DNA of 43,209 nt from Deltaproteobacteria bacterium (GCA_005879505.1 VBKQ01000008.1:1-43209); one strand, 5' to 3'; counted from the first letter of the stretch, positions 8,138-20,593 are shown. Notes: generated from the sequence alone by a model not told the origin. Numbers and translations: made by a program.

Positions 8138-9667
8138 CTAGATCGTCGGCCAGGCGGCGAGGCTGGGCAGCCGCAAGCGTCCGTCCTGCACGCGCCGCCC
8201 GCGCGCCGGCCGCACGCCACGCTCGCGGAAGGCGCGCTTCCAGGCGGCGAACGATCCGCCTGCCCGCCATGCCTCCAGGGCAGCGAGGCCGGCGTCTTCG
8301 CCGCCCTGCGCCAGCATGTACTCCACCCAGGCCCAGCGTGGGCTGGTAGGGCGCACCTCGGCCCGCCCGCGCAACCTCGCGCGCAGGTACGCTACGCGGC
8401 GCTCCGTCTCCTCGATGGGAACGAACGGCGCGCCATCCATCGGCGTGTTCCGCTTGGCGACGAACGGGGCGCATCCGAAGCTGAGGGGCACGATGCGCGA
8501 GATCTCGCCCGCGAGCTCCGCCAGCTCGTCCAGGTCGCGATCCTCCTCGCCCGGCAGCCCAACCATCAGATAGAGCTTGAGCCGCTGGAACCCGCCCTGG
8601 CGGGCCAGCCCGGCGACGCGAAGGAGTTGCTCCGCGGTGGTGCGCCGGTCGAGCGCTTTTCGCAGCCGCTCGGACGCGCCGTCAGCCGCCGTGGTGAGCG
8701 TCTTTGCCCCGGACTGGGCCAGCAGCGATACGAGCTCGGGCCGCGCACAGAGCCGGTCGGCGCGCAGCGAGGAGATGCCGACCTCGCGCCCGTCTTCGAC
8801 GAGCTTGCGCACCAGCTCGACGACGCGCGGATGATCGGTGACGGCCGCGCCCACCAGGCCCACGCGGCGTGCATCTTCCGGGATCAGGTCGAGTACCCGC
8901 TCCGGATCGACGGTGCGCATGCCACCGTTGGTGGTGCGGCGCATGACGCAATACGTGCACCCGCGGGAGCAGCCGCGCTCGGGCTCGATCAGGAACATCG
9001 AGCGCAGCTCGGTGTGCGGCGTCCGGATCTGCGAGCGGGCCGGTAGCCGATCGTCCTCCGCTCTCACGATGCCCGGCCAGGAGGGGGACAGACCGGGAAG
9101 GTAGAATCCCGGATGCCGGGAGAGTCGCGTCCGCAGCTCGTGGCGGGGGAGGGTGAGGGCGTCGCAGAGCGTGTGGATCAGGTCCTCCGCCTCGCCGAGC
9201 ACGATCAGGTCTGCGAAGGGCGCGAGCGGGACGGGATTGGAGAACGTCAGCGGCCCGCCGCAGACGATCAGAGGGTGTCGCTCGTCCCGGTCCTCGCGCA
9301 GGATGGGGATCCCGGCCAGATCGAGCATGTCGAAGAGGCCGGCGATCTCCAGCTCGTAGCTGACGGAAAAAGCGAGGCAGGAAAAACCGGCGACGGGCTG
9401 CTGCGACTCGTAGGTGCAGATCGGAACGCGCGCCTCGCGCCAGGCCTGTACGTCGTCGGGAAGGAACGCCCGCTCCGCCGAGGCGTCGTCGTGCGCGTGG
9501 ATCTCGCGATAGATGGTCTGGAAGCCGAGCGAGCTCATGCCGACGTGATACGGGCTCGGGTAGCAGAGCGCGACGCGGGTGGCCGCCTGCTTGCGCAGCG
9601 TTCCTTGCTCGTCGGCGAGCCGGGTGCGGACGGGTTCGAGCAGGGGCCAGCGCATCGGACCGGGCAT
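8138..9667 (-). CDS. B12-binding-domain radical SAM protein (TIGR03960-like)
   Basis: Has the CX3CX2C cluster in ERGCSRGCTYCVM. The N-terminal half has RVALCYPSPYHVGMSSLGFQTIY, typical of this family. The start is taken at ATG 9667 (MPGPMRW), with an alternative ATG at 9655. The upstream part of the 580-aa track ORF looks non-coding. Confidence 0.8.
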   Translation of the reverse strand: MPGPMRWPLLEPVRTRLADEQGTLRKQAATRVALCYPSPYHVGMSSLGFQTIYREIHAHDDASAERAFLPDDVQAWREARVPICTYESQQPVAGFSCLAFSVSYELEIAGLFDMLDLAGIPILREDRDERHPLIVCGGPLTFSNPVPLAPFADLIVLGEAEDLIHTLCDALTLPRHELRTRLSRHPGFYLPGLSPSWPGIVRAEDDRLPARSQIRTPHTELRSMFLIEPERGCSRGCTYCVMRRTTNGGMRTVDPERVLDLIPEDARRVGLVGAAVTDHPRVVELVRKLVEDGREVGISSLRADRLCARPELVSLLAQSGAKTLTTAADGASERLRKALDRRTTAEQLLRVAGLARQGGFQRLKLYLMVGLPGEEDRDLDELAELAGEISRIVPLSFGCAPFVAKRNTPMDGAPFVPIEETERRVAYLRARLRGRAEVRPTSPRWAWVEYMLAQGGEDAGLAALEAWRAGGSFAAWKRAFRERGVRPARGRRVQDGRLRLPSLAAWPTI

Positions 9668-9686
9668 TCTAAGGTAGAAGACGGCG

Positions 9687-10745
9687 ATGCGCCCTCTCGC
9701 GCTGCTGCTCTGCGTCCTCGGGTGCGCAGAGTGGCGCATGCCGCCGACGTTTCCGGAGCGGGCTGCCGGGCGCCCGGTCGTGCACGAGCAAGCGCTGCTC
9801 GGGCTGTCGCCGCAGGGCGACGCCGCAGTGGCCGAGCTGGTGGAAGCCGACGGCAGCGAGCCCCACCTCGAATTGCGCATCTTCGCCGGCTTGGCCGGCT
9901 TGGGGACACAATACGCAACTCCTCATGCCAGCGCCGTTGGCACGGCGAGTTGCGTATTGTGTCCCCCGACCCTGCTCGTGGCTTCGATCGACCGGGCGCG
10001 GATCGTGGCGCAGAAGCTGCGATCGGTGGCGGGGCGGCCCCAGCCTGTCTTGGCGGCGATCGTTGCCGTCGAGTGGCCGGAGGCGATGTTGCGCGCGGCG
10101 CAGCTCGGGTATGCACCGCGCCTACCCGCGGAGCCGGAACCTGGGAGCGGGCTCTGGCACATCAGGGGAGCGGCCGGGGCCGGGGCGCTGCCGCTGGCGC
10201 TCCGCGTATCGCCGATGGCGGATCCGCCGGCGCTGCTGCTGCTGCTCTCCGATGGCCTCGGCGGTGACGGGATCGAGCTCGCCCGGGTCCTGATGACCGG
10301 CGACGTCGTGGGGCCGCAGCTCTTCCTCCAGGACGGCGTGGCGTGGCTGCTGGCGGGATCGGTGAGGGCGGACCCGTTGCGGCGTACGGTGGGTCTGCAC
10401 CGGGCAATGCTCGCGCGAGGCGAAGCGCAGCTGCACAACGCGCACGGGCTCGAGGATTACGCCGCTGGGGAGCTGGACGCGGCGCGCCGCGAGTTCGGCC
10501 GCTCCATCGCCGCGGACCCCTCGTATGTCGACGGTCTCTACAACGCGGCGGCGGCGGCCGCGCTCACCGGTCGCGCGGAAGAGGCCGTGGAGCTGCTCGC
10601 GCGCGCAGCGTCCGTCGATCCCGCGCGCGTGCAGGTCCTCGGGCGCAACGACCAGGACTTCAAGTCGCTTCGCCGCCGGCCAGACGTCCGCGCCCTTCTC
10701 GGGCTGAGAAGGCCGCCACCGGAGGGCATTCCTCCGCCACCCTGA
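9687..10745 (+). CDS. Putative lipoprotein with C-terminal TPR repeats, carrying an in-frame palindromic insert
   Basis: Has the signal peptide/lipobox MRPLALLLCVLGC. The C-terminus is TPR-like (YAAGELDAARREFGRSIAADPSYVDGLYNAAAAAALTGRAEEAVELL). GC3 is high on both sides of 9902-9966 in the same frame. Confidence 0.65.
   Translation: MRPLALLLCVLGCAEWRMPPTFPERAAGRPVVHEQALLGLSPQGDAAVAELVEADGSEPHLELRIFAGLAGLGTQYATPHASAVGTASCVLCPPTLLVASIDRARIVAQKLRSVAGRPQPVLAAIVAVEWPEAMLRAAQLGYAPRLPAEPEPGSGLWHIRGAAGAGALPLALRVSPMADPPALLLLLSDGLGGDGIELARVLMTGDVVGPQLFLQDGVAWLLAGSVRADPLRRTVGLHRAMLARGEAQLHNAHGLEDYAAGELDAARREFGRSIAADPSYVDGLYNAAAAAALTGRAEEAVELLARAASVDPARVQVLGRNDQDFKSLRRRPDVRALLGLRRPPPEGIPPPP
9902..9966. 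repeat. 65-bp hairpin element with perfect 20-bp inverted arms
   Basis: The left arm GGGGACACAATACGCAACTC (9902-9921) is the exact reverse complement of the right arm GAGTTGCGTATTGTGTCCCC (9947-9966). The 25-nt loop contains a nested TGCCA/TGGCA pair (9926-9930 and 9938-9942). It is preceded by the tandem 9-bp duplication GCCGGCTTG x2 (9885-9902). Confidence 0.9.
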
Positions 10746-10759
10746 GCGCCTCCCCTGCT

Positions 10760-11638
10760 ATGGTCCCGCCCCCGATGCCACCGCTGCTCCTCATCGCGGC
10801 GCTCCTCGCGCAGGCCGGGCTCTCGGAAGAACGCGCGCGCCAGATCCTCCCGCGCGCCGATCTGCGTGCCCTGACCGATCAGCAGCGCGCGCAGTTCCTC
10901 GAGGTCGCCGGCGATACCTTCGGATACGCCGGCTGCAACGACACGCTGGCGCGCTGCCTCGCCGCGAACGTGACCGACAAGCACGCGCCGCGCATGGCCG
11001 AGCTGGTCAAGGCGCTGCTGCTGGAAGGGTCGTCGACGTCCGCGGTCATCGACATGGTCGAGCGGTACTACGCGGGCTTCGCCAAGGAGAAGCGGCAGAA
11101 GCTGCTCGATCAGGACTGCGCACAGCTCGGCGAGGCGAAGGCGCCGGTCGCCATCGTCGAGTACTCCGACTACCAGTGTCCGCACTGCGCCTCGGCGGCG
11201 AAGCCGCTGAGCGAGACGGTGCGCGCGCTCCCCGGCAAGGTGCGCCTCTGCTTCAAGTACTTCCCGCTTCCCGGACATCCGCGCGCGCCGATCGCGTCGG
11301 CCTGCGCCGAGTACGCGCGGCAGCAGGGCAAGTTCTGGGAGATGAGCGATCTGCTGTTCACGCACCAGGAGGAGCTCGGCGACTCCGAGCTGAAGTCGTT
11401 CGCGCGGCAGCTCGGACTCGACGGCGACGCCATGCTGCGCCAGGCTTATGCGGGGCGATTCGACGCCGTCGTCGACCGGCACAAGAAAGAAGGCGTCGCC
11501 GCCGGCGTGCAGTCGACACCGACGGTGTTCTTCAATGGCCGGCAGTTCACGCTGCCGGTGAAGCTCGATTTTCTCGTCTTCTCCACGCAGGACGAGGACG
11601 AGTGGCAGCGGAACAAAGGCGGCTGGGACAAAGACTGA
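10760..11638 (+). CDS. DsbA-family thiol:disulfide oxidoreductase, secreted
   Basis: Has a signal-like N-terminus (MVPPPMPPLLLIAALLAQA) and the thioredoxin active site YSDYQCPHCA. An alternative ATG lies at 10775. Confidence 0.8.
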   Translation: MVPPPMPPLLLIAALLAQAGLSEERARQILPRADLRALTDQQRAQFLEVAGDTFGYAGCNDTLARCLAANVTDKHAPRMAELVKALLLEGSSTSAVIDMVERYYAGFAKEKRQKLLDQDCAQLGEAKAPVAIVEYSDYQCPHCASAAKPLSETVRALPGKVRLCFKYFPLPGHPRAPIASACAEYARQQGKFWEMSDLLFTHQEELGDSELKSFARQLGLDGDAMLRQAYAGRFDAVVDRHKKEGVAAGVQSTPTVFFNGRQFTLPVKLDFLVFSTQDEDEWQRNKGGWDKD

Positions 11639-11652
11639 GAGCTGTCGTCGAT

Positions 11653-12720
11653 ATGCAGGCGATGCAGATCGCGCAGCGGCCGGTTCCCCTGCTGACGCCG
11701 GAACTGCCGGGCACGTCGGGGCTGGTCCGCGTCGCGGAGGACGACTTCTACGTCGAGGAGCTGCCGCTGTACGAGCCGTCCGGAGCAGGGGAGCACCTCT
11801 ACTTGACGGTGGAGAAGCGGGGCCGCACGACCCCGGAAGTGGCAGCGGAGATCGCGCGCTATCTCGGAGCGCGCGAACGCGACGCAGGGACCGCAGGCCT
11901 CAAGGACAAGCGCGCCGTCAGCGTGCAGCGCATCAGCGTCCTCTCCAAGGCAACCCCGGAGGAGGCGCTCCGGCTGCAGGGGCGAGGATTCCGCGTGCTG
12001 GCCGCCGCCCGGCATGGCAACAAGCTTCGCCCCGGGCACCTGCGCGGCAACCGGTTCCGCATCGTCGTCCGCGGCGTCGTTCCGGAGGGGATCGCGCGCG
12101 CCCGCGCGATCTGCGCGCGCCTGGCGGAGATCGGCGTCGCCAATCTCTTCGGCCCCCAGCGGTTCGGAAAGTACGGCGACAACGCCGAGCTCGGCCGCGC
12201 CATCCTGCTGGGCGAACGCCCGATCCGCGACCGCTTCCTGCGGCGCATCGCGCTCTCGGCGCTGCAGTCGGAGCTGTTCAACCGCTGCCTGGCCGCGCGG
12301 ATCGCCGACGGCCTGTTCGCGACGGCCATCGACGGCGACGTCCTGAAGAAGCGCGCCACCGGGGGGCTGTTCGTCTGCGAGGATCCGCGCGCCGATGCTC
12401 CGCGCGTCTTCTCGGGCGAGCTGGATCCGGCGGGGCCGCTGCCCGGACATTCGCTCTTCGCATCCAGCGGCGAGGCTGCCCGCCGCGAACAGGCGGTGCT
12501 GGCCGAGTCCCACATCGACCCAGGGTCGTTCGCGTCGGCGGGCGAGGAGATGCAGGGCGCGCGCAGACCGTACCGCATCGCGCCAAACGACCTCCGGGTG
12601 GAGCCCGCCGGCGACGACGCGCTGGTCGTCTCATTCGCCTTGCCCAAGGGAAGTTATGCGGTTTCCGTCCTCCGCGAGATCAGCAAAAACGACGTGGAAG
12701 AGGCCGATTCGAGCGCCTGA
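11653..12720 (+). CDS. truD: tRNA pseudouridine(13) synthase TruD
   Basis: Contains FYVEELPLYEPSGAGEHLYLTVEKRG, the catalytic-Asp context GLKDKRAVSVQ, and NLFGPQRFG. Confidence 0.88.
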   Translation: MQAMQIAQRPVPLLTPELPGTSGLVRVAEDDFYVEELPLYEPSGAGEHLYLTVEKRGRTTPEVAAEIARYLGARERDAGTAGLKDKRAVSVQRISVLSKATPEEALRLQGRGFRVLAAARHGNKLRPGHLRGNRFRIVVRGVVPEGIARARAICARLAEIGVANLFGPQRFGKYGDNAELGRAILLGERPIRDRFLRRIALSALQSELFNRCLAARIADGLFATAIDGDVLKKRATGGLFVCEDPRADAPRVFSGELDPAGPLPGHSLFASSGEAARREQAVLAESHIDPGSFASAGEEMQGARRPYRIAPNDLRVEPAGDDALVVSFALPKGSYAVSVLREISKNDVEEADSSA

Positions 12721-20557: not shown

Positions 20558-20561
20558 CGCT

Positions 20562-20593
20562 GTCGGACTGTACAGTCTAAAAGCAGTAGCCGC
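20562..20593 (-). promoter_or_regulatory. Conserved intergenic block (copy B) containing the perfect 12-bp palindrome GACTGTACAGTC
   Basis: The minus strand reads GCGGCTACTGCTTTTAGACTGTACAGTCCGAC. The palindrome is at 20566-20577, 8 nt upstream of the ATG at 20557. Confidence 0.45.

Follow-up and report, generated by a model that had tools for sequence, protein, structure and literature searches.

How does a perfect hairpin come to lie inside a protein-coding gene without closing its reading frame, and where does such a hairpin come from? The question arises in a 43,209-nucleotide stretch of DNA from a Deltaproteobacteria bacterium (VBKQ01000008.1), which we refer to as the window. Here a hairpin lies in frame within the gene of a predicted 352-residue lipoprotein (plus strand, 9687–10745). 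The sequence-only reading had taken it for a foreign or selfish element that resembles REP or MITE repeats, or the palindromic elements of Rickettsia that settle in genes in frame. This view is supported by the orthologues of the gene, by the recurrence of the arms elsewhere, and by the arms that flank Y1 transposase genes. The extent of what was inserted and the part played by a neighboring duplication have to be revised.

The hairpin and its host gene

The left arm of the hairpin, GGGGACACAATACGCAACTC, occupies positions 9902–9921, and the right arm (9947–9966) is its exact reverse complement. The 25-nt spacer between them (9922–9946) contains a nested stem, TGCCA/TGGCA, which is lengthened by G–U and G–C pairs in the RNA fold. 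The sequence and the fold thus confirm the perfect 20-bp arms, the loop and the nested stem that had been described. The left arm is the conserved terminal inverted repeat core of a family of repeats and begins with GGGGACAC, a tag of the GGGGWSAS type. Chance matches to the 20-mer arm are expected at 0.01, and two matches were found in none of 100 shuffles. The RNA fold of the region 9885–9985 has an energy of −62.8 kcal/mol, compared with −36.5 ± 3.4 in dinucleotide shuffles (z = −7.7). The arms are indeed poorer in G+C than their surroundings, at 55% against roughly 70% for the window. Within the 43 kb, the hairpin is the only long, near-perfect, short-range inverted repeat of its kind, and no second copy of the arm was found there, either at up to five mismatches or by nhmmer with a profile built from 163 half-elements. 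At gathering thresholds, Rfam matched neither the window nor the first 12 loci of the family. An AT-richer palindrome, GCTGTCGGACTGTACAGTCTAAAAGC with the center ACTGTACAGT, is present elsewhere in the window at 20559–20584.

Several well-known kinds of hairpin were considered and set aside. The stem is unbulged, there is no array and no T-run, and the center is variable, which removes the attC, CRISPR-repeat, intrinsic-terminator and protelomerase-site readings. An integron attC site is an imperfect hairpin with R and L boxes and extrahelical bases, found in cassette arrays adjoining an integrase. The present stem is perfect and without bulged bases, is a single copy in the window, and stands outside arrays at most loci.

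The host protein has a signal peptide with the lipobox VLGC and a C-terminal TPR region that gives weak matches to TPR families in Pfam. More than 200 homologues, mostly of 329–340 aa, are found in metagenome-assembled genomes (MAGs) labelled Myxococcales. The gene order around the host gene (8138–12720 in the window) is conserved across all orthologous contigs and runs from a divergent radical SAM protein (Radical_SAM_N2 and Radical_SAM) through the lipoprotein/TPR gene and a DsbA/thioredoxin-like gene to TruD. The hairpin lies in frame within the ORF, as had been noticed, and would give the element-derived peptide GTQYATPHASAVGTASCVLCPP on translation. An AlphaFold model of the lipoprotein, based on the protein alignment A1, has a mean pLDDT of 80.9 and a pTM of 0.79. 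The pLDDT falls below 50 only at residues 1–25, the signal peptide, and 73–91, the insert, which the model places between the strands 60–66 and 95–98. In the model, the 20 inserted residues are a floppy loop between two β-strands, which the protein tolerates.

Filled, empty and partly deleted alleles

We aligned the DNA of nine orthologous loci, plus further alleles, and found that the empty alleles lack 60 nt, which in the window begin with CACAAT, end with GTGTCCCC and occupy 9907–9966 or, alternatively, 9908–9967 on the plus strand. The empty allele of L013 reads GCCGGCTTGGGGACGACCCTG. At the junction, the empty form TTGGGGACGACCCTG corresponds to a filled form in which TTGGGGA is followed by the 60 nt and then by CGACCCTG, with a 1-nt ambiguity and no target-site duplication. 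The five nucleotides GGGGA (9902–9906, plus strand) complete the palindrome and belong to the gene itself, being also present in the empty alleles, where TTGGGGA runs directly into CGACC. The palindrome thus spans 65 bp (9902–9966) as originally described, while the inserted length is 60 nt. GGGGA plausibly derives from ancestral Gly–Thr codons (GGN...ACG in the outgroup L018), and we infer that it is a candidate target or cleavage tag.

The insert at 9907–9966 encodes QYATPHASAVGTASCVLCPP, residues 75–94 of the lipoprotein. In the protein alignment this segment is present in the window protein and in P0001, P0002, P0003 and P0010. Half of it is kept in three others, with the left arm only in P0004 and P0009 and the right half only in P0011. 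It is missing from P0005–P0008, which are otherwise 98–99% identical to the window protein, and from every more distant orthologue. The DNA agrees: the 60 nt are missing from the nearest allele that was found (98.7% identical) and from every distant orthologue. Because orthologues that are 98–99% identical and all distant ones are without the 20 codons, the 60-nt element is, on these alignments, a derived insertion in the lipoprotein gene. The comparison of orthologues that had been proposed as a check thus gave a clean presence or absence of 20 codons. The insertion postdates the split from the L018/P0014 lineage and took place in a Myxococcota lineage. The host gene stayed open because 60 is a multiple of three and the arms are free of stops in any frame; all six frames read through, giving GDTIRN, GTQYAT and GHNTQ on one strand and VAYCVP, LRIVSP and CVLCP on the other.

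The junctions are defined by a single filled/empty comparison. Directly 3′ of the palindrome, the next 5 nt read CGACC in the empty alleles and clade A; L015 has GGATC there, and clade B has AATTA. Because these 5 nt differ among sister lineages, the original right junction is uncertain. Both GGATC and AATTA resemble the outer arm of the repeat family. An AT-rich outer arm at positions −7 to −1 (RRAWTYC), partly conserved and carried by most family members, is missing from the window copy, which is therefore not a typical full-length unit.

A neighbor-joining tree of the alleles was computed from 969 ungapped columns with the empty L018 as outgroup. The element or a remnant of it is found in all ingroup alleles except L013 and L020, which are empty and nest beside the window at 1.2–1.3% divergence. 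Filled, partly deleted and empty alleles all occur at 1.2–2.3% pairwise nucleotide divergence. L014 carries an in-frame partial deletion in which the right arm is gone, and L015 an in-frame partial deletion between GCCG repeats in which the left arm is gone. The insert is tolerated in frame and is unstable at this locus. The most parsimonious history would start from a single old insertion, after which L014 and L015 independently underwent an in-frame partial deletion each. For L013 and L020, the window's closest relatives, it would add either a clean loss of the 60 nt or a recombinational replacement.

The element is immediately preceded by a tandem 9-bp duplication, two copies of GCCGGCTTG (plus strand, 9885–9902) that encode AGL-AGL. 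The duplication had been suspected of being an insertion scar. It is present as described, but it occurs only in the window and L019, which are allele backgrounds 5.5% apart, and the element-bearing alleles L017, L016, L119 and L077 are without it. A target-site duplication was also considered and rejected, as the repeat lies upstream only and is missing from other filled alleles. Since it is found in the window and L019 and missing from four other filled alleles, the duplication is a separate slippage event, neither an insertion scar nor a target-site duplication. In the RNA fold it forms its own small hairpin (GCCGGC...GCCGGC; 9885–9899) directly upstream of the element. The slippage at 9885–9902 was possibly promoted by the adjoining hairpin, since the duplication is seen only in element-bearing alleles (two of six).

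A repeat family and its Y1 transposase

We scanned one GTDB genome per species for both arm cores at a variable gap and found 12 hairpin copies in three representative MAGs. Seven are on different contigs of the Myxococcales MAG SMAG_U15199, four in the bacterium LQ108M_Bin_12 and one in a Gammaproteobacteria MAG, and all 12 share the stem GGGGACACAATACGCAAY/RTTGCGTATTGTGTCCCC. The Myxococcales copies have an inner stem, GTGCCAA...TTGGCAY, like that of the window copy, and hypervariable tips. The spacer stem of the window copy is the inner stem of this Myxococcales subfamily (compared with L001, L003, L004 and L009–L012). The Myxococcales copies also carry extra outer arms (...YCGGA(AT/GA)TC), which lengthen the hairpins to about 110–130 nt, and three of the seven SMAG_U15199 copies lie between the stop codons of convergent high-GC3 ORFs. 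Covariation of these outer arms was considered and rejected, as the GAATTC and GAGATC variants combine freely (three copies matched and four mismatched).

A scan for single arms found the 17-mer arm core in at least 120 metagenome stretches, and in most of those listed the partner arm is 30–70 nt away. The search for further copies that had been suggested earlier thus finds the arms in many genomes and metagenomes. Other forms in the metagenomes include solo arms, nested doubles, a three-copy cluster and inverted pairs 520–860 nt apart. Over 74 hairpin copies, arm positions 0–16 are at least about 90% conserved (91% or more), positions −7 to −1 (RRAWTYC) are partly conserved, and the sequence beyond −10 is random. 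The terminal repeat core, which begins GGGGACACAATAC, is near-identical across hairpin-bearing contigs of 50–74% G+C. The arm was not found in a viral contig collection and the full element had no match in plasmids; nothing therefore points to an origin in phages or plasmids. The arm as a literal string gave only unrelated matches in papers.

Some loci show more elaborate arrangements. L091:295–3375 holds a group of three hairpin copies in about 3 kb (at 295, 1529 and 3312), and inspection of the first 3.6 kb found no convincing ORF between them. Nested double hairpins, with the order arm, arm, loop, arm, arm, are present in L116:2415–2524, L134:349–485 and L026:1322–1420, and represent either an element inserted into the loop of another or a palindromic duplication. 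In L089:1–140 the right arm and its flank form a 43-nt tandem duplication; the flank reads TCCCCCGAC, in which the five bases after the palindrome are the same as in the window (GTGTCCCCCGAC). In LQ108M_Bin_12 (L002:5760–5950 and L007:7450–7640), the core hairpin lies within a longer shared palindrome, ...CTCCTCCCGGGAGAAT.AGGGAGACGAGGCC..., of about 190 nt; in L002, part of the left arm is duplicated as well.

The arms are associated with a transposase. In five independent contigs (L085, L035, L141, L142 and L144), single inverted arms flank a Y1/HUH transposase gene. The presence of such a gene elsewhere, which had been proposed as a check, is thus established at other loci; none was found in the 43 kb window. 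In L085 (50% G+C) and L035 (68% G+C), the distant inverted arms enclose ORFs of 219 aa that carry the HUH motif PNH(I/V)HL and the tyrosine motif RY(I/V)E(M/L)NPVRA, and that match Pfam Y1_Tnp at 53 and 42 bits, respectively (cut-off 23). The L085 protein, the only one scanned against NCBIfam, has REP_Tyr_transpos (NF047646) as its best match, at 78.9 bits against a cut-off of 80. The nearest solved structure to the transposase is E. coli TnpA-REP (4ER8). The protein family is very large: about 8000 proteins match at E < 1e-20, and their sources carry the labels of several phyla. Inverted GGGGACA(C/T)(A/G)(A/T)TAC arms also stand on either side of three further homologues, which are 80%, 67% and 63% identical. 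The stretch L144:1–5400 is rich in IS elements, with two Y1 transposase genes flanked by GGGGACA(T/C)GTTAC arms and two DDE transposases, and the Y1 element in this genome looks multi-copy and IS-like rather than single-copy. In L100:2199–2733 and L069:2536–3093, a whole passenger gene lies between two family arms, inner stem GTGCCAA/TTGGCAC included; Pfam assigns the passengers to a GNAT acetyltransferase (L100) and an OsmC-like protein (L069). Here cargo appears, from the sequence, to have taken the position of the transposase.

All hairpin copies were screened against spanning high-GC3 frames, and in-frame copies were found in two genes, the lipoprotein gene and that of an ABC ATPase. The second copy (L003:5796–5876, minus strand; identical to L088:262–342) is a full-length element with outer arms. 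Its site is the linker that joins the two ABC_tran domains of a 538-aa protein, and this copy supports the analogy to Rickettsia palindromic elements that had been drawn for the window copy. Ten ABC ATPase orthologues, down to 72% identity, keep the segment GT(Q/P/R/H)Y(A/E)..(L/F)R(I/M/S)VSP, and more distant ones are without it. In the orthologue L145 the stem is a perfect 23 bp and carries a compensatory C–G to A–T change. The core arms of L003 and L145 match at 34 of 36 nt (94%), and both differences belong to this one compensatory pair. Over the remainder of the gene, identity is 78%; at third positions it is 60%, compared with 92% in the arms (P about 0.01–0.02 for arm against gene conservation). 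At the protein level, the changes of Q/I to P/M and H/S likewise fit compensation. Furthermore, clade B of the lipoprotein gene (L016, L119 and L077) shows an in situ compensatory C–G to T–A change at stem position 18, with the loop as in the window. Intrastrand template switching can give paired changes in palindromes, and concerted evolution with other copies can homogenize repeats. The stems are kept perfect by selection, by intrastrand templated correction or by homogenization with other copies, between which the data do not discriminate.

Origin of the insert and its relation to known systems

We consider it likely that the insert is a non-autonomous palindromic core that was mobilized in trans by a Y1 transposase of the RAYT/TIRYT type. 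The hairpin has the terminal repeat GGGGACACAATACGCAA(C/T) in two copies, inverted with respect to each other, around a short variable spacer. As single inverted arms, the same repeat flanks the IS200-like Y1 (HUH) tyrosine transposase gene, and the short form would relate to this gene as REPINs or BIMEs relate to RAYT. The 60 nt lie in the lipoprotein gene directly 3′ of the pre-existing GGGGA, with no duplication of the target. By analogy with IS200/IS605 and TnpA-REP, the transposase would act in trans on the single-stranded hairpin, making its left-hand cut 3′ of GGGGA and its right-hand cut 3′ of TCCCC. The cleaved ends would then be joined by strand transfer into the GGGGA target, TTGGGGACGACC. 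Insertion and excision may both be seamless, as in the peel-and-paste transposition of IS200/IS605, and seamless joining would also give precise excision.

The main rival to insertion by a transposase is a templated repair patch, in which a stalled or broken 3′ end (...TTGGGGA) annealed by microhomology to a family element at another place in the genome, copied its core across the hairpin and returned, leaving a truncated 60-nt copy. This would fit a window copy that is core-only, without the outer arms of most family copies, and a left junction with 5–6 nt of identity between target and element (GGGGA(C)). Ordinary deletion and repair are also clearly active at the site, as seen in L014 and L015. 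However, the microhomology at the right junction is at most 1 nt, and the clean absence of the insert in nested alleles is easier to explain by seamless excision. The full-length in-frame copy in L003, outer arms included, further argues that family members enter genes whole. We regard the repair patch as unlikely and prefer the transposase. We are more doubtful of a stronger form of the transposase model, in which the core hairpin is an active substrate that is inserted and removed seamlessly 3′ of GGGGA, its TCCCC tail pairs with the tag, and in-frame copies are reversible. If this were true, the 3′ TCCCC tail would choose the insertion site by pairing with the target tag. The surface lipoprotein would be polymorphic, on or off, through reversible loop insertions, and an active process would maintain the perfect stems. 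This would account for both the nested empty alleles and the compensatory changes.

A different reading makes the selfish origin secondary and holds that the hairpin was kept for the host, as an RNase III or translation-pausing site in the mRNA, or as a site for protein binding or DNA topology. The compensatory changes, C–G to T–A in the lipoprotein clade B and C–G to A–T in the ABC ATPase, point in this direction, as do arms that evolve more slowly than the host gene. Against such an exaptation, the element is dispensable: the closest alleles are empty, and two lineages broke the stem by in-frame deletions. The paired changes can be mechanical, through intrastrand template switching, and with no T run in the sequence the hairpin is not an intrinsic terminator. 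We give a host function very little weight. The chance that the hairpin is a fold-back chimera of sequencing or assembly, or an ancestral gene segment that is palindromic by accident, is negligible. The window is a single assembly, and an artefact has this general possibility alone in its favor. The same insert, with sequence variants, is found in at least six independent assemblies (ENA, NCBI and JGI), the arms recur at unrelated loci, and distant orthologues are empty.

Transposition by a Y1 enzyme, the reading we prefer, invites comparison with several known systems. REP sequences, BIMEs and REPINs with their RAYT (TnpA-REP) were reportedly described by Nunvar in 2010, Bertels and Rainey in 2011, and Ton-Hoang and Messing in 2012, the last with the structure 4ER8. 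REPs are short palindromic repeats in many copies, often between convergent genes, and their inverted doublets form long hairpins with a less conserved tip; the cognate RAYT is a typically low-copy Y1 transposase gene flanked by REPs. The canonical REP unit is an imperfect palindrome of 20–40 nt with a GTAG or CGTC tag at one end, and is usually species-specific. The present family likewise has multicopy palindromes, sites between convergent genes, a variable hairpin tip, a Y1 gene between repeats, and 4ER8 as the nearest structure. However, its single arm, GGGGACACAATACGCAAC, lacks self-complementarity, and the tag is GGGG, neither GTAG nor CGTC. Its core is near-identical across contigs of widely different G+C, unlike the usual species-specific REPs, and the L085 transposase falls 1 bit below the NCBIfam RAYT cut-off. 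A literature search that combined RAYT or REPIN with myxobacteria gave nothing relevant among the papers listed.

The palindromic elements of Rickettsia (RPEs), reportedly described by Ogata et al. in 2000, are to our knowledge about 100–150 bp long, occur in frame in dozens of Rickettsia genes, and have no known transposase. Like them, the present element is a palindromic selfish repeat that lies in frame in functional genes, is translated as an extra surface segment and is retained over evolution, and its in-frame insertions (lipoprotein and ABC ATPase) are missing from orthologues. The host phylum is a different one and the sequence is probably unrelated, and two in-frame genes were found here as against dozens. 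The ends of IS200/IS605 elements are asymmetric; each has its own subterminal hairpin, and terminal inverted repeats are lacking. With these elements and their palindrome-associated derivatives (PATEs), the family shares a Y1 HUH transposase and the lack of a target-site duplication. It may also share insertion directly 3′ of a short specific sequence, seen here at one site, 3′ of GGGGA; seamless excision of this type would explain the clean empty alleles. It differs in that its ends are inverted repeats that pair into one long hairpin. DDE-derived MITEs are likewise short, non-coding elements with terminal inverted repeats and possible in-frame fusions, but the present element lacks a target-site duplication, and its associated enzyme is of the Y1/HUH type instead of DDE.

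The closest match is provided by TIRtrons, which encode TIRYTs (TIR-associated tyrosine transposases; Di Nocera, De Gregorio and Rocco 2013, BMC Genomics 14:522, PMC3733652). In the parts of that paper drawn on here, TIRtrons share the TIR motif GGGGWSAS, which the arm start GGGGACAC fits, and TIR repeats occur as singles, dimers and clusters. In both cases, a Y1/HUH gene is flanked by the same inverted repeats as are found dispersed, and the arms themselves are not palindromic; away from the gene, the repeats of the present family occur as hairpin dimers, solo arms, nested doubles and a three-copy cluster. The same parts of the paper list intragenic copies for GTAG and CGTC REPs and not for TIR repeats, and their description of TIRtrons and TIRYTs leaves Myxococcota unmentioned (PMC3733652). 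In-frame intragenic REPs and RPEs are documented there, as far as those parts go, and in a 2024 review (PMC10969869). To the extent of this description, the element is a GGGGWSAS-type TIR dimer of Y1 TIRYT transposases that lies in frame in the manner of intragenic REPs and RPEs. The sequence-only reading was not aware of such elements in myxobacterial genes; the kind itself has been described, as TIRYT repeats and intragenic REPs, and Myxococcota go without mention in the portion of PMC3733652 considered here.

The phenomenon is thus already known, and the window copy is a well-documented example of it, not a new kind of element. It offers a clean natural case of a selfish palindrome that invades a gene, persists there as a disordered loop and is afterwards cut down or lost. 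It ties an otherwise anonymous hairpin to a specific and very widespread family of Y1 transposases, and the filled/empty junction yields a concrete guess at the position where the enzyme cuts. For the annotation of Myxococcota proteins, the peptide signature GTQYATP...CVLCP or ...LRIVSP can serve as a flag for such insertions.
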